Source of the DNA: Tidjanibacter sp.
GTDB lineage: Bacteria > Bacteroidota > Bacteroidia > Bacteroidales > Rikenellaceae
Assembly: GCA_045633985.1 (NCBI GenBank)
Contig: JAZQZI010000020.1
Span: 1,442-65,441 of the forward strand
Length of the DNA: 64,000 nt
Reading direction: 5' to 3'
Notes under the pieces: generated by a model
Database searches by the model: none
What the model saw: only the letters and a program-made list of their open reading frames with translations
What the model was told of the DNA's origin: nothing
Shown here: one piece after another, positions 5,264 to 55,186 of the stretch
Numbering within the stretch: position 1 is the stretch's first letter
Layout of the letters: every line of letters starts with the position of its first letter
Translations under genes and position numbers: made by a program

Positions 5264-5401
5264 TTTCTCGTTAGCCAATAATGCGCCAATATAACTGACA
5301 AATATACAACGAAGAATTGGAAATTGAAAATTGAGAGTTTAAAGTTGAGAGTGATTTGGGTGTTTGGGGGTATTTTGGGTGTTTTGGAATGCCCCCCAGA
5401 A

Positions 5402-5611
5402 CTCCTATTACTCCTATTACTCCTATGCTCTACCCCAAATAGGAATTATGGGAGTTATAAGAGTTATAGGAAATTTTGAATTTTAATCCCCCTTTGGGGG
5501 CTTTTAATTGCTCCCGCTCGGTAAAGTCTGCAAGCAGCCTTTGCTCTCGCTTACTCGCAATTTTGAATTTTGAATTTTGAATTTTGAATTTTCTAATAGC
5601 CCCATACACCC
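5402..5611 (+). repeat. composite intergenic element, copy a
   Basis: Layout: CTCCTATTA x3, a loop, ATAGGAGTT-like x4 (an inverted 9-mer array), a core with two hairpins (5488-5500 and 5523-5542), AATTTTG x4-5 (5559-5593), then the tail CTAATAGCCCCATACACCC. The core aligns to copies at 34252-34336 and 54326-54412 on the opposite strand. A TTTGGGTG-like tract lies at about 5355-5397. Confidence 0.85.
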
Positions 5612-5799
5612 TATAAAAGTTTTCGGGCTTGCCCAGCAAGCCCGCGACGGTAGTCGGTCGTCGGTTGGCGGTAGACGTAAAAAGCACAGATTGTCGAAGG
5701 GATTTTGTGCCAAACAAGAAGGCAGCTCCGGAGTTTGCAAACGCAAATGAGGAAGCTGCCTACCGCAGTTTGGTGCAAAATTCACCGACAATTCGCCCG

Positions 5800-18078: not shown

Positions 18079-19149
18079 TTATTCAATAATTCCGCACTCC
18101 GTAAATATAAACTCCAACACCTTGCGGGCATCTCTTCGCATAATGGGGTCGTTCGTGTGAGAAACAACCAACTCTATCCAACGACGACCTCTATCATTGG
18201 TCGTTTCACCTCCCCAATTCTCAACCAACACATCTTCAGCACACTCTTTCAAAGTGTTTTTGAACAACTCCTTATGCTCGGCTATCTTACGGAAAACTGC
18301 CGGCATCAACACTCTTGACCCATCGGCAGTTGTCATCCACTCTTTACCTCCCGACGAGAACGAATCTCTCACATTGGCATTGATTATTCCGTTCTCTGTT
18401 GCAAGCCACAAAGTTGCACGGTCATACTTAAACTGGCTCCTGGACAATATCGTTTCGGGGAACAGAACATAGATTGTAGCCTCCAGCTCGTCCTTTTCAA
18501 CCGAAGAGAGCGTTCGCCACAACCTTACCGTTGCGGGAATGGCCGTGTCAGTCCTACCACCAGCCCACCACAAAGCCTCACCTTGTCGAAGTTGTGATTT
18601 ATAGTACTCGGCAACGGGTGTAACAGGATTCTCCATTGTGCGCAACTTGTCATACGGGCACCCCATCTTATCAAAGATGGTTTCTCCCTCCCTTAAATTC
18701 ATATCAATTTGATAACGAGGATAATGAGTGACTGCTATGCCGGACATACACTCCTCATAAGGGCGAGAACGAAATCCTACGGGGTCGGACAATTTACCGA
18801 AAGTCAGAAATATGCGCTCAACATCTGCTATGCGGGTTGATTCCAAAATAGAGCTACCTATCGACCTCCAATTATTACCTTTTGAACTTTTTACCTCTAT
18901 ACCGTAGTATCTGGATGCGACAATGTCTGGGAATGATGCGCCCGAAACCAATTGAATGGCTCCTTCAAATGTGGTATGTTTAGCGCTCTCTACTGCAGCC
19001 GCCCATACATCGCTTTCAAGTTGCAGACCACCTCGGGCAACATAATAATCGCCTCGTTTGGCTGCGTCTGCATTCAATATATCATCCATCCTCTGTATGA
19101 GTTCCTTGAACTCCTCGAGAGAGGGTTTAGGGTTAGTAGCAACAATCAT
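18079..19149 (-). CDS. putative type II restriction endonuclease (PD-(D/E)xK fold)
   Basis: 356-aa ORF with a candidate catalytic motif FPDIV...GIEVKSSK. Its ATG directly abuts the TAG of the upstream C5 methyltransferase. G+C is low. Its specificity is unknown. Confidence 0.55.
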   Translation of the reverse strand: MIVATNPKPSLEEFKELIQRMDDILNADAAKRGDYYVARGGLQLESDVWAAAVESAKHTTFEGAIQLVSGASFPDIVASRYYGIEVKSSKGNNWRSIGSSILESTRIADVERIFLTFGKLSDPVGFRSRPYEECMSGIAVTHYPRYQIDMNLREGETIFDKMGCPYDKLRTMENPVTPVAEYYKSQLRQGEALWWAGGRTDTAIPATVRLWRTLSSVEKDELEATIYVLFPETILSRSQFKYDRATLWLATENGIINANVRDSFSSGGKEWMTTADGSRVLMPAVFRKIAEHKELFKNTLKECAEDVLVENWGGETTNDRGRRWIELVVSHTNDPIMRRDARKVLEFIFTECGIIE

Positions 19150-20391
19150 CTATTCGGATTTAAAATATCGTTCCCATTTGGATTCGAGGTTCTTTGCAAT
19201 ATTGTAAGCCAACAAACAAGGAACAGCATTACCAATAATTTTATAGGCGTCGCTCGCACACAGCGAACCATGGCTACCGGTTTTGGCAAGCACAAATTGG
19301 TATTCATCCGGGAATGTTTGTATTCTAGCACACTCTCTCACTGTCAGCCTTCTCTCTATCATCCCACTATTAAGCTCACTAAGATACTTTCCGCCGTGCT
19401 CTGCCGACAATCTGCGATACTCGATGTTTCCGTGGTGCTCCGAACGGATTGTGGGCCCTACGGATGACAAGCGCACCTCCGTTTGTCCCTGACAATGTGG
19501 GCCCATATATTTTGCTTTGGAATAGGCTCTCTGTGACATATCGCAACTCGCCTCCGGCTCATCCAAACCCACAAATGCATCCTCACACGTCACATAGGGA
19601 GAAAGGTTGATTCCGTGAGTGGGAGTTGGATAGGGGTCGTATGCTGAGGGTATATTCTCTTGCGAAAGGGCAGCCAAAGCCTCAGGAGTGAGCGCATCTC
19701 TGCGGAAACCGAAAAAAAACACCCTCTCTCGCGACTGCGGAACACCATATTGAGGAGCTTCCAACACCCTGGACGGCACAACCAAATACCCTGCTTCTGC
19801 AGCTTCCGCAAACCCTTTTTCGATAACTTCCTTAACGTCACCGAGATTGGTCAGACCTTTGACATTTTCAGCAACAAAAAGCTTTGGCTTGGTAAGTGAC
19901 ACAACCTCCCTCATCCACACATAAAGTTGTCCTCGGTTCTCTATGGATTGGTTGTCCCCCTCCAAAGTCGTACCATTGTGGCTTTTCTGCGAAGCAAAAC
20001 CGCGACGCTTGCCGGCAACGGAAAAATCTTGACAGGGAAAACCTCCCGTCACAACATCGACCTCTGCAGGAAATATTTTTTCACCCTGTTGTGCTCTTTT
20101 GACAAAATCAACAATGCTGCCCAGATGGTAAATATCTTCGCTAATATTTTGATGATCTGAAAAATAAGTTATCCAGGCAGTTTGTGCATCGGTGCGTATA
20201 TCATTCGCAAAGATTGTACGAAAGGCGGTGGGAGCCAACTTCACCCAATCCCCCCCATCTTCCACAACCCAATCGGGATGCATATGGAGATTTACCGACT
20301 TTTTCAAGCAACGAAAATTGCCCTCAAAGCCGATATCCATTCCTCCACATCCGGAGAAAAGGGATAAAACTTTCAAATCTTTACTTGACAT
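19150..20391 (-). CDS. DNA (cytosine-5)-methyltransferase
   Basis: C5-MTase motifs I LFSGCGGMDIGF, IV GGFPCQDFS, VI ENVKGL, VIII QSRERVFFFG and X GNAVP. The first ATG is at 20391 (MSSKDLKV...). The ORF-track start at 20424 is a TTG. Confidence 0.9.
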   Translation of the reverse strand: MSSKDLKVLSLFSGCGGMDIGFEGNFRCLKKSVNLHMHPDWVVEDGGDWVKLAPTAFRTIFANDIRTDAQTAWITYFSDHQNISEDIYHLGSIVDFVKRAQQGEKIFPAEVDVVTGGFPCQDFSVAGKRRGFASQKSHNGTTLEGDNQSIENRGQLYVWMREVVSLTKPKLFVAENVKGLTNLGDVKEVIEKGFAEAAEAGYLVVPSRVLEAPQYGVPQSRERVFFFGFRRDALTPEALAALSQENIPSAYDPYPTPTHGINLSPYVTCEDAFVGLDEPEASCDMSQRAYSKAKYMGPHCQGQTEVRLSSVGPTIRSEHHGNIEYRRLSAEHGGKYLSELNSGMIERRLTVRECARIQTFPDEYQFVLAKTGSHGSLCASDAYKIIGNAVPCLLAYNIAKNLESKWERYFKSE

Positions 20392-20434
20392 TTTATTTTG
20401 CGGTAATTGCGTCTTTATACTCAACCATCAATGG

Positions 20435-30239: not shown

Positions 30240-30291
30240 CTGCTTTCGGGTTATCGGTTATTTCATTCTCGGACAGGCAGTGTCCGCTGTC

Positions 30292-30319
30292 GGTTGACGG
30301 TTGACGGTTGGCGGTCGAC
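30292..30319. repeat. heptamer tandem array GGTTGAC x4 (degenerate)
   Basis: GGTTGAC GGTTGAC GGTTGGC GGTCGAC lies directly 3' of the dusB stop. Related GTCGGTC-type tracts lie at about 5650-5672 and 54444-54464. Confidence 0.8.
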
Positions 30320-33977: not shown

Positions 33978-34172
33978 TTACTTAACGAGGAGCTTGCGAA
34001 GTTTGGCTGCGTCGGCGGGAGTAACGATTGCCGAGTAGTCCAAGTTGCGTTTGCGTTTGGTAGATTTCTTGGTGAGGATGTGGCTGTGATAAGCGTGTTT
34101 CCTCTTAATCTTACCGGTGCCGGTGAAGTCAAAGCGTTTCTTCGCGCCGGCGTTAGTTTTCATTTTTGGCAT
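33978..34172 (-). CDS. rpmI: 50S ribosomal protein L35
   Basis: ATG at 34172 gives the 64-aa product [14 protein letters not shown]...[16 protein letters not shown]. The ORF-track start at 34232 lies inside the repeat array. Confidence 0.9.
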
Positions 34173-34203
34173 TTCGATAAAATTTAATTGGTTAAACAGC
34201 CCG

Positions 34204-34211
34204 CAAAGATA
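34204..34211 (-). promoter_or_regulatory. -7 box TATCTTTG for rpmI-rplT at the edge of the heptamer array
   Basis: The reverse complement is TATCTTTG, about 32 nt upstream of the rpmI ATG. On this strand the adjacent AATTTTG array places a TTTG every 7 nt, and one of them lies about 18 nt upstream. Confidence 0.5.
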
Positions 34212-34216
34212 CAAAG

Positions 34217-34419
34217 AAAATTCAAAATTCAAAATTCAAAATTCAAAATTGCGAGTAAGCGAGGGCAAAGACTGCTTGCAGGCTCTGACGAGCGAGAGCA
34301 ATTAAAAGCCCCGAAGGGGATTAAAATTCAAAATTACCTATAACTCCTATAATTCCTATAACTCTTATCCGGAGTAGAGCAAAATAGGAGTAATGGGAGT
34401 TATAAGAGTTATGGGAAAT
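34217..34419 (-). repeat. composite intergenic element, copy b
   Basis: AAAATTC x4-5 (34217-34251), a core with hairpins at 34267-34286 and 34309-34319, then an inverted 9-mer array (CCTATAACT-type at 34337-34370, a loop, ATAGGAGTA-type at 34384-34419) that runs up to the trmH-like stop codon. Confidence 0.85.
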
Positions 34420-35106
34420 TCAAAAATCTTCGCCAAATCCTTTGCGGAGGATACCTTCGTCGTCCTTGATGCTCTCCCTCATCCAGCGGTAGAGCAGTTC
34501 GCTCTGCTCCTCGGGCGAGAGTCGCCAATCGACACTGCTGCGATGGAGCCGCTCCTTGAGTCCCTGAATGAGGATAGCTGCACAAGCCGACACATTGAGG
34601 CTCTCCACAAATCCATACATAGGTATCTTTATAAAATCGTCGGCCGCAGCCATCACCTCGGGCGAGATACCCTGCTTCTCAGTGCCGAACACCAGGCAGA
34701 AGGGGCCTCGGGTGACATCGAAACTGTCGGGTGTGCAGTCGTCGCTATGGGGAGTGGCCGCCACAATACGGTAGCCACTCTCCTTAAGCAGGGCAATGGT
34801 GTCGGGGGTATTCTCGTGGCGGAAAATATCGACCCACTTGTCGGTGCCACGCACAATGTGGGTGTTGGCTTGGAAGCCACAGAGGAACTCAATGGCGTGG
34901 AGCTCCTGCACACCGAAGGCCTCACAGTGGCGCACAAGGGCACTTGCATTCTGGGGATGAAAAGTATTCTCGGCACATACGGTCATATAGCGTGTGCGGT
35001 CGGCCACCACACGTCGCATAGTAGCAGCCCTCTCGGGGAGCATAAACTCCTCAAGATAGGCTATGCGCTGGTCGTACCACTCTTTGGGTTTAGCGATATT
35101 TGCCAT
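34420..35106 (-). CDS. TrmH/SpoU-family RNA 2'-O-methyltransferase
   Basis: The likely ATG is at 35106 (MANIAKPKEWYDQR...). It has the SpoU motifs (FGTEKQGIS, IPMYGFVESLNVS). It overlaps the rsgA end by 17 nt. Confidence 0.75.
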   Translation of the reverse strand: MANIAKPKEWYDQRIAYLEEFMLPERAATMRRVVADRTRYMTVCAENTFHPQNASALVRHCEAFGVQELHAIEFLCGFQANTHIVRGTDKWVDIFRHENTPDTIALLKESGYRIVAATPHSDDCTPDSFDVTRGPFCLVFGTEKQGISPEVMAAADDFIKIPMYGFVESLNVSACAAILIQGLKERLHRSSVDWRLSPEEQSELLYRWMRESIKDDEGILRKGFGEDF

Positions 35107-39903: not shown

Positions 39904-40011
39904 AGTTATCAGTTGTCAGTTATTAGGGAGTTATAGGAGTTATAGGAGTTATAGGAGTTATAGGAGTTATAGGAGTTATAGGAAATTTCTCTAATGGCCC
40001 TATGTACCCCC
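39903..40011 (+). repeat. truncated (core-less) copy d of the composite element
   Basis: AGTTRTY x3, six perfect GGAGTTATA units (39927-39980), GGAAATTT, then the tail CTAATGGCCCTATGTACCCCC, which resembles the tail of copy a. The hairpin core and the AATTTTG array are missing. Confidence 0.8.
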
Positions 40012-40021
40012 GGCCAACCCT

Positions 40022-42388
40022 TTAGAACGGATAGCCGATACCGAAGTTGAGCGCCGTATTGTGGATGTTGGGGTGCGAGATAACCCATCTCTCACCCTCG
40101 GGCTTGCCGGGATTGTGGAGCTGGATACCCCAATCGAGGCGCAGCACAAGTACATTGAGGTTGAGCCTCAAGCCCACACCCGTATTGAGAGCCATCTGCG
40201 ACAGGAAGGTGTCGAACCCGAAGGCCGCCCCCTCGGGAATACCCTTAATACCGGGGGTGTACCACACATTACCCGCATCCACAAAGGCTGCACCATCGAA
40301 AATACCTCCCAGCGGGAAGCGCCACTCCAAGTTGGCCTCCAGGCGGAGATTACCAAATTGGCTCGGGTAGCCACTATTCACCTCGGGCGAACTGCCGGGG
40401 CCGAGGGTGCGCACGGGCCAACCACGCATACTGTTGATACCTCCCGCATAGAAGAGCCTATCTGCCGGCAGCGACTCGTTGCGAGAGTTGCCATAGGGGA
40501 AAATCAGACCTCCATAGAGGCGATATACCAATTGGCTGCGGTCGGTAAGGCTGAGTGATTGGGCCCAGGTGAGGTCGCCACGCACATATTGTGCATAGGG
40601 GATGCCAAAAACGGTGTAGTGGCCGTCGCTCTTCTCTTCTCCCAGCAGGCTCTTAACGCCCGACAGGAGATTACCACTGGTGGAGAGGCCCACACGCAGG
40701 GTTGTATAGTCGCTCTGGTTGGCGACATTGGTTGTGCCATAGGCGTAGGAGCCCGAGATACCCGCCATCATCTGTGTGGTGTAGCTATCCCTCAAATATG
40801 GGTTTTGCAGCCTATCCAGAAACTCCTGGCTCACATAGTTCATCTTCACAAGGCTCACATCAAAGGGGCGAATGGTGAAGTAGCTCTTGCGACCATTGTT
40901 CCAGCTGTAACCGAAGCTCACATTGGAGAGCACACGGTTGTAGTAGCGTCGGTTCTGGTCGTTTATGGAGAACTCAAGGCGCGTCTGGGGGCTGTGGGCC
41001 ACACCTGCGTGGTCGAAGTCGAAGGGGAGGAGGAATTGAGGGAAGGTGACACCCACCATACCGCCCAGCTCTGTGGAGTTGCGGTTGAGCGATGGGTCCT
41101 CCACTCTAAGAAGTTCATAGCCAAACGTGAAACTCATATCGAACAGCTCGGCACCACGGAAGAGGTTGAGATTCTGATAACCGAGCGTTGTGGCCACACC
41201 ATAGAAGCTGGAGGTTGTGGATGCCTCAAGCTCCACCTTATAGCTCTGCCTCATTGCAGGCGAGAGCCTTATCTCGCAGTCGAGCACACCCTCCATAGTC
41301 TCTGCCGTGTCACTCCAATGGTCGCCCACAAAGGTCACGGGGTGCATAGAGCCCGCCACGGGCGAGAAGATGATGTTGGCACTGTGGATATAATCCATAC
41401 CCATAAGGTTGTCGTAGGTGGTTGCCACCTTCCTGTCGTCGTACATAGAGCCGCTGTGGAGCCTTATGAGTCTGCCGAGCACCGAGGGGCGGATGTTGGG
41501 CCTCTCGCCGGGGTAGATTATCTCCATACCGTTGTGCGTGAGGGTGTCGAGCGAGAGGAGGTAGTCGGGATTGGTGGCGGCCTCTCGTGCGTCGTAGTCG
41601 GGCATCACACGTATATTGCCGATGCGATAGAGGGGGTTGTTGCGTGTTTGGGGCCTACCCTGCGAGTCATAATCGACCACCTGGCGGGTTAGCACCATCT
41701 CCACCGAGGCTTTGTGGTCGCCGAGGGTGGTATCCACCTGAAACTCTATGTTATTCTCCGTGAAGTCATAAAAACCCTCGCTACGCAGACGACGTGTGAG
41801 CTCCGAGCGCTCCTCGCCGAGGGCCTCGATATCCAAAATCCTCCCGGGTCGCAAACCGCCGAGGGTGTCATCCTGGAGCAACTTGGCTATGTAGCTGTCC
41901 TCAATATCGTACTCCACCTCGGAGATACGGTAGGGCTCGCCCTGAATGGTTGTGTAGGTCACCTCGGCCGTCCGTCTTTGGGGGTCGAGATGGAAGGAGT
42001 ACTCCTCCTCGGCACCGAAGAATCCTCGGGAGGCAACGTAGGCCTCAATATTCTCTGCACTGCGACGTGTAAGGGTGGTATCGAGGATTGTGGGAGGGGT
42101 GCCCAGGGTACGCATCAGGCTGTTCCATACGTTTTTACTCTCGGGGTCGGACTTCAGATAGAGCCACGCACGAAGGTGGAAGAGGTCCATCGAGGGGCGC
42201 TGTTTTATATACTTGGAAATCTCCTCGGCGGAGATGCGCTCCTCACGGGGCGTGGAGTGGTCGCTCTCCACACGGTTTTGGGTGAGCACATAGGCCCCTT
42301 CGGGGAGCAGCGAGCGTATATTGCAGGAGCTCATCACGAGAATGATGAGCATCAGCAATACTGTTTGTCTTCGTTGCACTCGGGCCAT
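40022..42388 (-). CDS. BamA/TamA-family outer-membrane protein (POTRA plus Omp85 barrel)
   Basis: ATG at 42388 gives MARVQRRQTVLLMLIILVMSSC (a lipoprotein-like signal). It is 788 aa and ends in the aromatic barrel terminus ...NFGIGYPF. The ORF-track entry extends to 43246 through dapF on the other strand, and that part is rejected. Confidence 0.75.
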   Translation of the reverse strand: MARVQRRQTVLLMLIILVMSSCNIRSLLPEGAYVLTQNRVESDHSTPREERISAEEISKYIKQRPSMDLFHLRAWLYLKSDPESKNVWNSLMRTLGTPPTILDTTLTRRSAENIEAYVASRGFFGAEEEYSFHLDPQRRTAEVTYTTIQGEPYRISEVEYDIEDSYIAKLLQDDTLGGLRPGRILDIEALGEERSELTRRLRSEGFYDFTENNIEFQVDTTLGDHKASVEMVLTRQVVDYDSQGRPQTRNNPLYRIGNIRVMPDYDAREAATNPDYLLSLDTLTHNGMEIIYPGERPNIRPSVLGRLIRLHSGSMYDDRKVATTYDNLMGMDYIHSANIIFSPVAGSMHPVTFVGDHWSDTAETMEGVLDCEIRLSPAMRQSYKVELEASTTSSFYGVATTLGYQNLNLFRGAELFDMSFTFGYELLRVEDPSLNRNSTELGGMVGVTFPQFLLPFDFDHAGVAHSPQTRLEFSINDQNRRYYNRVLSNVSFGYSWNNGRKSYFTIRPFDVSLVKMNYVSQEFLDRLQNPYLRDSYTTQMMAGISGSYAYGTTNVANQSDYTTLRVGLSTSGNLLSGVKSLLGEEKSDGHYTVFGIPYAQYVRGDLTWAQSLSLTDRSQLVYRLYGGLIFPYGNSRNESLPADRLFYAGGINSMRGWPVRTLGPGSSPEVNSGYPSQFGNLRLEANLEWRFPLGGIFDGAAFVDAGNVWYTPGIKGIPEGAAFGFDTFLSQMALNTGVGLRLNLNVLVLRLDWGIQLHNPGKPEGERWVISHPNIHNTALNFGIGYPF

Positions 42389-42466
42389 TGTTGCTTTTGG
42401 GGTCAAAAAATTTCTCAAATATACAATAATTTCGTTATATTTGTGAGCATTAACAGCCGTTTTTCG

Positions 42467-43264
42467 ATGAAAATAGAGTTTTGGAAATACGAGGGCGCAG
42501 GCAACGACTTTATACTCCTCGACCAGAGGGGTGCAAATTTCGAGCCCACAACCCGGCAGATACACCTTTTGTGTGACCGTCGCCGAGGAATCGGCGCCGA
42601 CGGACTTATGATGCTCGGTGAGAGTCGGGGTGCCGACTTTTCGATGCGCTACTTCAATGCCGACGGCCCCGAGGCTACAATGTGTGGCAACGGCGGCAGG
42701 TGCATCACCTGGTTTGCCGACCTGCTCGGCATAGGCGGCGACACCAAGCGTTTCGAGGCTGTCGATGGCCTCCACACATCCACCATCCTCCACCGAGAGG
42801 GTGCGTCGGCAACCGTGAAACTCGGAATGACCGATGTGGAGCGTATCACTGTTTGCCCCGATGGCGATGTATTGCTCGACACCGGCTCCCCCCACCTTGT
42901 GCGACGTGTGGAGAGCCTCGATATAGATGTTGTGGGTCTGGGCCGAGAGTTGCGCTACGACGCCAAAACCGCCCCCACAGGTGGTGCCAACATCAATTTT
43001 GTGAAGATTGGGGGCGAGGGAAAACTCTCGCTGCGCACCTACGAGCGAGGTGTGGAGGATGAAACTCTGGCTTGTGGCACAGGAGCCACCGCCACCGCCA
43101 TTGCCGTGTGTCACACGCTCCAGCCCTCCGTGCATCACTTTGAGCTCCAAGCCCAGGGTGGCGACCTCGAAGTGGAATTTACACCCGAGGGCAATGGGCA
43201 CTACACTAACATTTACCTCACAGGCCCCGCCCGTCTGGTATTCCACGGCACCATAGAGATTTAA
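42467..43264 (+). CDS. dapF: diaminopimelate epimerase
   Basis: ATG at 42467 (MKIEFWKYEGAGNDFILLD...) with both catalytic-Cys regions (NADGPEATMCGNG and CGTGATA). A TATATTTG -7 box lies at 42436-42443. Confidence 0.9.
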   Translation: MKIEFWKYEGAGNDFILLDQRGANFEPTTRQIHLLCDRRRGIGADGLMMLGESRGADFSMRYFNADGPEATMCGNGGRCITWFADLLGIGGDTKRFEAVDGLHTSTILHREGASATVKLGMTDVERITVCPDGDVLLDTGSPHLVRRVESLDIDVVGLGRELRYDAKTAPTGGANINFVKIGGEGKLSLRTYERGVEDETLACGTGATATAIAVCHTLQPSVHHFELQAQGGDLEVEFTPEGNGHYTNIYLTGPARLVFHGTIEI

Positions 43265-43397
43265 TCCGCCCGACAGAGATACACAAAAGACCCTTTGGCA
43301 TCTACCAAAGGGTCTTTTGTGTATAGCAGTGTTTGCAATATATCAGTGTTTGCAGAATATACGTGTGTACAGAATCTCCGTGTGTGGGCACCCCCCA

Positions 43398-51141: not shown

Positions 51142-51168
51142 GGTGTTATAGGAGTTATAGGGGTTATG
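51142..51168. repeat. 9-mer array (copy e) overlapping the 3' end of the four-helix-bundle gene
   Basis: GGTGTTATA GGAGTTATA GGGGTTATG, preceded by the G-rich tract GTGGGGCGTTAGGGG. Confidence 0.75.
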
Positions 51169-51790: not shown

Positions 51791-51932
51791 TTATAGGAGT
51801 TATAGGAATTATAAGAATTATAGGAGTTATAAGAGTTATAGGCATCTTTCCCCCATTACTCCCATTACTCCTATCACTCCCATTACTCCTATCACTCCTA
51901 TTACTCCTATCACTCCCATCACTCCCATCACC
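51791..51932. repeat. inverted 9-mer arrays (copy f)
   Basis: TTATAGGAG-type x6 (51791-51844), a short loop, then CCCATTACT/CCTATCACT-type x9 (51852-51932). The second array is roughly the reverse complement of the first, so the two could form a long imperfect hairpin or cruciform. Confidence 0.85.
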
Positions 51933-54290: not shown

Positions 54291-54412
54291 GAAATTCAAA
54301 ATTCAAAATTCAAAATTCAAAATTGCGAGTAAGCGAGAGCAGAACAAACTTGTTTGTTATGCCGAGCGTGAGCAATTAAAAGCCCTCGAAGAGGGGTTAA
54401 AATTCAATATTG
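54291..54412 (-). repeat. composite intergenic element, copy c (no 9-mer arms)
   Basis: (G/A)AAATTC x4-5 (54291-54325) followed by a core with hairpins at 54343-54358 and 54383-54395. These hairpins differ in sequence from copies a and b but keep the pairing. After the core come a GCCCCC...GGGGGC hairpin (54419-54443) and a GGTCGTC x2 tract. Confidence 0.85.
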
Positions 54413-54463
54413 ACACACGCCCCCTCTATGTTAGAATGGGGGCTGTTGTCGGTCGTCGGTCGT

Positions 54464-54491
54464 CATAAAATAAGGCGCCGTGTGGCGCCTT
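54464..54491 (-). terminator. intrinsic terminator after the 229-aa gene
   Basis: AAGGCGCC-ACAC-GGCGCCTT followed by ATTTTAT on the minus strand. Confidence 0.65.
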
Positions 54492-54496
54492 CACTT

Positions 54497-55186
54497 TTAT
54501 ATGTCGTCCGAGCGGAACTCATACCCCAACCTCTTACCCGTCTGGAGCTTGGTATTCTCCTGGCGGGAGAGGAACTGCTCGGCAGCCACCGTCTTCACGG
54601 TGTCGTAGGCGGGCACCAGCAGGTCGAAGCTGAGCGCATAGAGCATCGCACGCTCCAAAATCTCCAAAATCGCCTCCCTCGAAACGCTCTCCTTGCCGAA
54701 ATCATCGACCCTCCAGCGCTCCTGGCGTTTGCCCTCAACAAAGAACTTACCCTCACGGTTCACAAAAATTCGACCAATGAGGTAGCCCTCATCCTCCTCA
54801 CGTTTATACTTCATAGAGTCCGCCAAGAAGTTGTAGATGTTAATCACACCGCAGTAGCCGTTGGCACGGTCGGCCTGGACATAGGGGTTGTGCCAAATAC
54901 GGTGGCCACGCTCAAAATTGAAGACGTTGGTGTGCATAACAAACACCAACAGGTCGCCCGCAATCTGTATCTGCGCCTCAAACTTGCCTCGGTCGCTATA
55001 CTCGATGCGGATACGTTTGTCGATACGCTCGTCGAGCTCCTCGTCAATCTCCGTGGAGAACTCGTGGAGTGCGTCCTTCAGCTCCGCAAAAAGGGCATTA
55101 GTATTGTCGAAAATCTGTTGTTTGAGCCCCGACTTGGTCACCAGAAGCTCCTTAATGTGAGTACGTAACTCGGATTGTGATTCCAT
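54497..55186 (-). CDS. hypothetical protein (229 aa)
   Basis: Intact ORF with codon usage like the core genes and 38 nt downstream of the glucosaminidase gene on the same strand. I recognise no motif. Confidence 0.55.
   Translation of the reverse strand: MESQSELRTHIKELLVTKSGLKQQIFDNTNALFAELKDALHEFSTEIDEELDERIDKRIRIEYSDRGKFEAQIQIAGDLLVFVMHTNVFNFERGHRIWHNPYVQADRANGYCGVINIYNFLADSMKYKREEDEGYLIGRIFVNREGKFFVEGKRQERWRVDDFGKESVSREAILEILERAMLYALSFDLLVPAYDTVKTVAAEQFLSRQENTKLQTGKRLGYEFRSDDI

Follow-up and report, generated by a model that had tools for sequence, protein, structure and literature searches.

In the 64-kb window analysed here (the whole stretch of Tidjanibacter sp. DNA, 64,000 nucleotides), we identified three intergenic copies of a repeat element: copy a at 5472-5592 on the minus strand, and copies b at 34217-34335 and c at 54292-54412, both on the plus strand. 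The three loci are Rikenellaceae-lineage copies of a large family of structured elements with units of ~85-90 nucleotides (nt). Within each unit, two conserved blocks form the strands of an internal loop (GAGUAAGCGAG / CGAGCGNGA) that lies between an outer helix, P1, and a hairpin, P2, with a second hairpin, P3, following afterwards. The family spans gut and rumen Bacteroidales together with viral contigs, and the window feature is a sample of a widespread, strongly structure-constrained family that matches nothing in Rfam.

The three copies can be aligned with one another across ~130 nt. Exactly three matches to each of the blocks GCGAGTAAGCGAG and GAGCAATTAAAAG are present in the window, always as a pair, against a chance expectation of ~1 match even when two mismatches are tolerated. 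An array of (AAAATTC)x4.7-4.9 adjoins the first block in all three copies; pattern search and Tandem Repeats Finder (TRF) located such arrays only beside the cores, where the chance expectation is 0. The original prediction, made from the letters of the window, had described three copies with two hairpins each, four to five heptamers on one flank of the core, and inverted 9-mer arrays at copies a and b and none at copy c. All of these features are present, and the hairpin sequences had been quoted correctly. The blocks had further been described as nearly invariant and single-stranded. Each has three exact matches, but they are not single-stranded, being the two sides of an internal loop closed by a covarying outer helix. 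This third helix, P1, is formed by AATTGC directly 5' of GAGTAAGCGAG and GCAATT inside the second block, and appears both in RNAalifold and in the single-sequence fold. The parts of the three copies are the following.

Copy b
34217-34250, plus strand: heptamer array (AAAATTC)x4.9 (TRF, pattern search), whose last unit extends into the P1 5' strand
34246-34252, plus strand: P1 5' strand AAATTGC (RNAalifold outer helix, single-sequence fold, family covariation)
34253-34264, plus strand: conserved internal loop, 5' strand, GAGTAAGCGAG plus one variable nt
34265-34288, plus strand: P2 (hairpin 1 of the original prediction), GCAAAGACTG-CTTG-CAGGCTCTGA, with conserved non-canonical positions and a CUUG loop
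34289-34297, plus strand: conserved internal loop, 3' strand, CGAGCGAGA
34298-34303, plus strand: P1 3' strand GCAATT (RNAalifold, fold, family covariation)
34309-34319, plus strand: P3 (hairpin 2), CCCC-GAA-GGGG, with AAAAG before it and ATTAAAATTCAAAATT after it, to 34335
34337-34416, unstranded: inverted 9-mer arrays CCTATAACT / AGTTATAGG (TRF), outside the family core

Copy c
54292-54412, plus strand: whole element, with an AAAATT tail to 54412 and no 9-mer arrays
54292-54324, plus strand: heptamers
54320-54326, plus strand: P1 5' strand
54327-54338, plus strand: loop 5' strand
54339-54362, plus strand: P2
54363-54371, plus strand: loop 3' strand
54372-54377, plus strand: P1 3' strand
54383-54395, plus strand: P3

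Copy a
5472-5592, minus strand: whole element, with an AAAATT tail to 5472
5592-5559, minus strand: heptamers
5563-5557, minus strand: P1 5' strand
5556-5545, minus strand: loop 5' strand
5544-5521, minus strand: P2
5520-5512, minus strand: loop 3' strand
5511-5506, minus strand: P1 3' strand
5500-5488, minus strand: P3
5401-5471, unstranded: inverted 9-mer arrays, ACTCCTATT x2.9 at 5401-5426 and a AGGAATTAT/GGAGTTATA arm at 5439-5471

Among these copies P1, the loops and the linkers are identical, and P2 differs at many positions yet remains paired. A hypervariable and still paired P2 beside an invariant P1 and loop is unlike the outcome of recent transposition or neutral decay. In copy c the minimum free energy fold coincides with the family structure (z -3.27). 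Across the family, the unit read on the folded strand begins with AA and the P1 5' strand (6-7 nt, lineage-specific) and continues through GAGUAAGCGAG and one variable nt into P2, an 11-12 base pair (bp) hairpin with a frequent G.A mismatch, a bulged A or G conserved on its 3' side and a loop that is usually CUUG or CUCG. P2 leads into (C)CGAGCGNGA and the 3' strand of P1. A short linker then separates P1 from P3, a hairpin of 4-5 bp that frequently carries a GNA triloop, and AA comes last.

Two pattern searches supplied the copies on which this structure rests. A gapped two-block pattern gave 36 exact matches at 34 loci in ~14 genomes, all of them metagenome-assembled genomes of Rikenellaceae (Tidjanibacter, Alistipes and Rikenellaceae bacterium), several from ruminant or other animal guts. 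Aligned with the window copies, these already show CG, GC, AU and UA at the inner pairs of hairpin 1, and AU, UA, GC and CG in hairpin 2. The second, loop-anchored pattern fixed only GAGTAAGCGAG and CGAGCGNGAG and left all else free. It yielded 24 loci from IMG/VR viral contigs and at least 120 from metagenomes, and removal of ~nine chance matches in G+C-rich coding DNA left at least 163 distinct elements. In the loop-anchored elements the nucleotide preceding GAGTAAGCGAG pairs with the final G of CGAGCGNGAG, and the six nt farther out are complementary on both sides in nearly every element, with a sequence that is wholly different between lineages (GGCTGC/GCAGGC, AATCGC/GCGATT, CTTTGC/GCAAAG, AGGTAC/GTACCT, CTCATC/GATGAG and ATAAC/GTTAT, for example, and AAATGC/GCATTT and AGTTGC/GCAACT in divergent copies from the first covariance model). 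Since the P1 6-mers are complementary across lineages, the conserved blocks must be strands of an internal loop. Among the matches listed there are 53 distinct P1 7-mers, and 88% of P1 cells show Watson-Crick pairing.

We quantified the covariation in a MAFFT alignment (A6) of 70 elements (65 distinct sequences), whose 49-nt core contained zero gaps, so that no structure-guided fitting was involved. Over the 21 pairs scored, 93.5% of cells form standard pairs, compared with 74.6% when partners are shuffled and 30-42% when they are slid by 1-3 columns. Double changes occur in 16 of the 21 pairs (shuffled mean 12.1), and 267 cells have changed on both sides against 72 in shuffled data, with none of 500 shuffles reaching 267. 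P3 was scored separately among the matches listed: a hairpin of at least 4 bp starts within 5 nt of P1 in 121 of 161 elements, best stems average 4.16 bp, compared with 2.02 bp after shuffling, and the 59 distinct stems carry mostly GNA triloops. All three stems thus covary once more copies are aligned, and the stem-preserving substitutions beside conserved nucleotides, which the original prediction had pointed out in three copies, extend far beyond both the shuffled and the slid controls.

Within the purine-rich internal loop, a GC helix of 2 bp is probably flanked by two tandem G.A/A.G steps. One loop pair changes from C-G through U.G to U-A, which supports the presence of this helix inside the loop, and variants outside the search pattern, GATTAAGCGAG and GAGTAAGTGAG, were recovered by the second covariance model (R2). 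A kink-turn was considered for the internal loop and rejected by reasoning, not by computation, since the strand order and bulge length are unlike the standard kink-turn layout. Two sister subfamilies were also found, a phage and metagenome type, GGAGCAGCGAG...CCGAGTCGCGAC, and an Alistipes type, GAACCGACGCTGCGGAGCGAG...GCCGAGCCGC. Both coexist with the main type on single contigs, and all subfamilies have in common only GCGAG-N-[P2]-CCGAG. Sister-subfamily sites are as follows.

L019 5257-5344
L008 1939-2029 and 4840-4927
L022 2043-2132
contigs L066, L099, L082, L059 and L058

The stems contain 31 G.U against 8 A.C combinations, which identifies the GAGUAAGCGAG strand as the folded strand. 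Non-pairs in the stems are almost all purine-purine (GA 36, GG 22 and AA 15, against TT 1 and CC 1), and in all three window copies the GAGUAAGCGAG strand folds more stably than its complement, with P1 included in the predicted fold. Compensatory changes beyond controls and strand-specific wobbles, the two signatures of a structured RNA in the generic sense, are therefore both observed. Outside the Rikenellaceae, elements between co-directional genes lie on the gene strand in 30 locus clusters and on the opposite strand in 7 (two-sided binomial ~2e-4), and on viral contigs all 19 covariance-model matches (seven contigs) lie on the gene strand. The viral contig L066 carries six copies within 9.6 kb. 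This co-orientation with genes is indirect evidence for transcription from the folded strand. Element sites include 3', 5', convergent and divergent spacers; the distance from an element to the upstream stop codon tends to be shorter than that to the following start, and in five clusters the UAA of the loop is itself the stop codon. In-frame insertion of the kind known from Rickettsia palindromic elements was rejected as a description of these sites: six same-strand and two opposite-strand open reading frames (ORFs) span an element, and chance read-through is estimated at ~4.

Names of flanking proteins, obtained by exact look-ups, include Paraprevotella clara, Prevotella sp., Mediterranea/Bacteroides sp. 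and Bacteroidaceae. The family is not confined to one genome, and within the Rikenellaceae its orientation relative to genes is random. We estimate the density at ~1 copy per 20-25 kb in the DNA examined, and additional copies within a few kb are common. The 147 proteins beside non-Rikenellaceae elements fall into 132 Pfam families. HU-HIG is the commonest, with 5 proteins, followed by a phage-type peptidase with 3; none is common to more than 5 of the 147. The 25 families listed for these flanking proteins include neither a transposase nor a reverse transcriptase, and no transposase or Y1/HUH family is enriched. A BLAST search of one viral locus against a phage collection matched a methyltransferase only and nothing annotated for the element. 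Two known RNAs were seen beside elements, each with an Rfam match above the gathering score: c4-2 antisense RNA on a viral contig (L055 2410-2496) and DUF805b RNA on a metagenome contig (L118 998-1033).

Comparison of close relatives showed that copies are gained and lost and that tandem copy number changes. Locus b lies between a SpoU-type methylase gene and rpmI, and relatives were compared through close homologues of the methylase. A 67-kb NCBI contig encodes a protein 100% identical to the window's methylase, and homologues at 85% identity are labelled Tidjanibacter sp. The window has one core unit at this locus, L045 (methylase 99% identical) has two in tandem, and L192 has at least three across a scaffold gap, with flanking methylases that are 99-100% identical among these genomes. 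In L046 (97%-identical methylase) the element is absent and unrelated sequence begins right after the stop codon, the contig ending 55 nt later. In L039 and L042, where locus b is syntenic (~74% identity over 35 aligned coding bases), a 150-nt spacer has no element; the sequence close to the rpmI promoter is retained there, with TTTTGAATT placed 18 nt ahead of TATCTTTG. At locus c the element is absent from L197, in which the flanking protein is 98% identical and the gene order is the same. The upstream terminator and the distal spacer align, and ~85 nt in L197 correspond to ~205 nt in the window, where a run of the heptamer GACGACC and a further hairpin accompany the element. At neither locus was a target duplication or a clean empty site seen; the element-free relatives carry different spacer DNA. 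Truncated and mosaic copies occur as well. Two smaller observations concern the edges of these spacers. The methylase stop (window 34420-34430; L045 2185-2190; L192) lies within TTTTGAATTT or TTCTGAATTT, at the edge of the repeat block, and is TGA in the window and L045 and TAA or TAG in element-free relatives (L046 2185-2190). Downstream of a 214-amino-acid gene, the hairpin GGCGCCACACGGCGCC with a T run (window 54467-54500; L197 ~2147-2180) looks like an ordinary terminator and is kept between the window and L197 though the spacer beyond it has been replaced.

We compared the element with known classes of RNA and repeat. Rfam 15 gave no match in the whole window at gathering scores, and none to the element at E<=1 in 16 loci or at E<=0.5 in 5 viral loci. 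When the region 34100-34500 was searched at E<=10, only chance microRNA and CRISPR-DR matches appeared, on the 9-mer hairpin and P3, and the core was without a match, in agreement with the original prediction that the element belongs to no Rfam family. No published description of the motif was found in the searchable literature, which does not prove that none exists, and a full-text search for the loop sequence returned unrelated primer matches only. Neighbours from 132 Pfam families and spacers of all kinds are not those of a riboswitch or gene-specific leader. Miniature inverted-repeat transposable elements do not fit either: the P1 inverted repeat lies inside the AAAATT direct repeats and varies by lineage, and neither a duplication nor a precise empty site was found.

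Small modular intergenic hairpin repeats in many copies are known from other bacteria, as repetitive extragenic palindromes and bacterial interspersed mosaic elements (REP/BIME) in enterobacteria, BOX in Streptococcus pneumoniae and Correia/nemis in Neisseria. Known examples of REP/BIME, BOX and Correia elements are co-transcribed with neighbouring genes and alter the stability of the mRNA or serve as targets for cleavage by RNase III or RNase E. The present family shares with them its mosaic combinations and tandem arrays and is best seen as a functional analogue, not a relative. It lacks the GTAG-plus-palindrome layout of REP and REPIN and has no REP-associated tyrosine transposase (RAYT) beside it (no transposase occurs in the 25 listed neighbour families; a genome-wide RAYT scan was not made), and unlike Correia elements it has no long terminal inverted repeats with target duplication. 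It keeps an internal loop constant and lets its stems vary, whereas REP and Correia copies do the opposite, and unlike all these repeats it is present on viral contigs and beside proteins named for several Bacteroidales genera. Phage T7 carries RNase III sites as repeated internal-loop hairpins in sense orientation between cistrons. The elements on viral contigs resemble these in placement, but their loop is conserved across hosts and phages far beyond what RNase III needs.

The closest system in organisation is TwoAYGGAY RNA (Rfam RF01731), described with its flanking repeats in a Minerva preprint (10.64898/2026.09.22.753630) as a multi-copy intergenic structured motif of Pseudomonadota and Bacillota with 5-6-nt tandem repeats on its 5' side, larger arrays on its 3' side, strongly strain-variable copy number and unknown function. 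The window likewise runs from heptamers through a structured core to 9-mer arrays; its fold and sequence are unrelated, however, with neither AYGGAY loops nor an Rfam match. The hosts are Bacteroidales, and the conserved nucleotides sit in an internal loop and not in terminal loops. The closest in architecture is the non-coding RNA (ncRNA) of UG27 reverse transcriptases (RTs), in which an asymmetric internal loop with conserved motifs also brackets a diverse central stem and tandem units are gained and lost. UG27 ncRNA arrays occur in phages predicted to infect Bacteroidota, as units of 135-167 nt with a pseudoknot and AUCN7UANAG / UUYA motifs, beside an RT and two accessory genes (10.64898/2026.09.22.753630). 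The units described here are ~85 nt long, have other motifs (GAGUAAGCGAG / CGAGCGNGA), and are dispersed genome-wide, and no protein family, RTs among them, is common to more than 5 of the 147 neighbours. Finally, FopS/GibS are multicopy Bacteroides small RNAs, also found in a phage, for which the authors report Rfam deposition; each FopS RNA has a gene and a promoter to itself, as well as a single-stranded seed and a hairpin that acts as terminator (PMC11697453). Identity with FopS/GibS was rejected, the element having no promoter or terminator of its own and no Rfam match.

We give an even chance to a reading in which operon and phage transcripts carry the element as a structured RNA module that is recognised by way of its conserved loop, and in which its DNA also spreads as a repeat. 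The unit would be transcribed as part of operon and phage mRNAs, where a protein or RNase would recognise it. The most economical guess is a processing or stability 'punctuation' element between cistrons, with DNA that multiplies by duplication and recombination, as other dispersed repeats do. Several points weigh against this. Conservation of the loop was partly imposed by the search patterns, and R2 matches beyond the pattern do vary. The orientation counts used genes called by a home-made codon-usage caller trained on the loci themselves, and the locus clusters are approximate. Between co-directional genes in Rikenellaceae, 15 elements lie on the gene strand and 11 on the opposite strand, and copies b and c of the window run antisense to the operons around them, so that a sense-RNA role cannot hold for every copy. 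Given random orientation and copies that come and go, many Rikenellaceae copies, b and c included, may be passengers with little local function. Wobble G.T pairs and GNA triloops are favourable in single-stranded DNA too, so strand asymmetry alone is no proof of RNA, and we infer the element's transcription and processing and any binding partner.

If the structure served the DNA instead, the element would be a mobile or recombinogenic palindrome that forms single-stranded or cruciform hairpins and is copied by an HUH/RAYT-like transposase, a recombinase or replication slippage, and its RNA structure would be incidental. We consider this unlikely, though a serious alternative. It would account for differences in presence and tandem copy number where flanking proteins are 97-100% identical, for a density of ~1 copy per 20-25 kb and presence on host and viral contigs with no linked gene family, for the random orientation in Rikenellaceae, and for truncated and mosaic copies. 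The GNA triloops of P3 would suit it too, C(GNA)G triloops being classic stable DNA mini-hairpins. Such a palindrome sits less well with flanking proteins in which no transposase or Y1/HUH family is enriched, with the absence of target-site duplications and clean empty sites, and with a P2 that is hypervariable among copies in a single genome whose P1 and loops do not differ. The conserved mismatches and bulge argue against simple palindrome correction, and a replication-linked bias would be expected (an expectation only) to be weaker than the co-orientation of 30 to 7 and 19 of 19. Functionless, decaying selfish repeats, with stems kept by intrastrand templated correction and blocks kept by recent descent, are the least probable explanation in our view. 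Rapid turnover between close genomes and truncated copies are what decay would produce, but the loop persists from Rikenellaceae to viral contigs and contigs with Paraprevotella, Prevotella and Bacteroidaceae names, across which all three stems have diverged; the non-canonical positions and the bulge also persist without being 'corrected', and strand asymmetry and orientation bias are left without a cause.

The original prediction had read hairpin 2 and the sequence after it as terminator-like and the heptamer end as pointing towards the next gene. Built on this, a cassette was considered in which hairpin 2 and CTTTTAATT end upstream transcription and the heptamers, with TTTG every 7 nt, feed a downstream promoter. 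Each of the three window copies does turn its heptamer end towards the 5' end of a gene. The final heptamers before rpmI place TTTG 18 nt upstream of the TATCTTTG box, a spacing that fits the Bacteroidetes -33/-7 promoter consensus, and element-free relatives retain TTTTGAATT at the same spot. However, the orientation seen in the window is not general: of 39 Rikenellaceae copies, none of them inside genes, the heptamer side faces a 5' end in 16 and a 3' end in 21, and the two orientations between co-directional genes number 14 and 11. A simple scan found no terminator-like site around copy b on either strand, and on the folded strand, which is opposite to the 'terminator' reading, P3 most often precedes AA rather than a U tract (55 of the 121 elements with a P3 hairpin among the matches listed). 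In copy c the promoter-like TAnnTTTG lies, by our own reading, ~85 nt beyond the heptamers, and upstream heptamer-like copies occur in only 19 of 119 non-Rikenellaceae elements. As a general explanation the cassette was rejected on the orientation counts and the terminator scan, and we regard it as highly improbable; it may be a local side effect at rpmI and not the logic of the family. A bolder proposal, which we think quite unlikely, is that the loop is the active core of a new Bacteroidales and phage RNA class (a small self-cleaving ribozyme, or a handle for a dedicated trans-acting protein, such as a nuclease or an RT that copies P2 in the manner of UG27 systems), with P2 carrying locus-specific information. 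The resemblance to ribozymes is circumstantial: ~20 conserved loop nt between variable helices, many copies, tandem arrays and phage association.

Bacteroidales dominate the human gut and the rumen, and their non-coding repertoire is thinly charted; to our knowledge, they lack Hfq, ProQ and CsrA. The family described here would be either a post-transcriptional signal of general use that some protein reads or a very successful selfish hairpin that spreads in an unusual way. Since flanking proteins match Paraprevotella clara, a named species of the human gut for which there is a 4.03-Mb record, the family should be accessible to experiment. The element also provides strain-level copy-number markers, and it marks repeat-rich spacers at which short-read contigs can break, as in the relative whose contig ends 55 nt past the locus b stop.

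The repeats around the core are separable from it, and the 'composite' of the original prediction does not hold up as one unit. The heptamer of the window lineage, CAAAATT, is a repeat of the stretch that makes up the P1 5' strand there. Additional copies of the P1 7-mer average 0.59 upstream and 0.55 downstream, against 0.12 and 0.20 for shuffled 7-mers, and outside the Rikenellaceae a copy is present upstream in 19 of 119 elements and downstream in 23 of 119. The heptamer characterises the window lineage and a small number of others but not the family at large; several other lineages have different A/G-rich 6-8-mers beside the element. The 9-mer arrays occur without a core in intergenic spacers at 39927-39983, 51145-51167, 51791-51842 and 51852-51931, as GGAGTTATA x6.3 (perfect), TTATAGGAG x5.8 and a CCCATCACT-type array x8.9, with two different arrays back to back at 51791-51931. 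The 9-mers of the copy b arrays recur in coreless form at 39927-39983 and 51791-51931. Their presence without the core makes these arrays an independent module. Related genomes have arrays of other 9-mers, TTAGGGAGT, GACCTTAAG and GTCTTATGG.

Short tandem repeats of other kinds, CGGTAGT, GTCGGTC, CGGTTGA and GTGTTTTGG, lie at 5648-5674, 54448-54464, 30291-30319 and 5351-5387, mostly in the same intergenic spacers as copies a and c. A 17-nt tandem repeat, ATATCAGTGTTTGCAGA x3.6 (79% matches), occupies 43323-43383, adjacent to the end of a long gene on the minus strand (40022-43246). At 18079-20424, two long minus-strand ORFs (356 and 424 amino acids) were left uncalled by the codon-usage caller, which called their neighbours; their composition may be atypical, which might point to acquired DNA.

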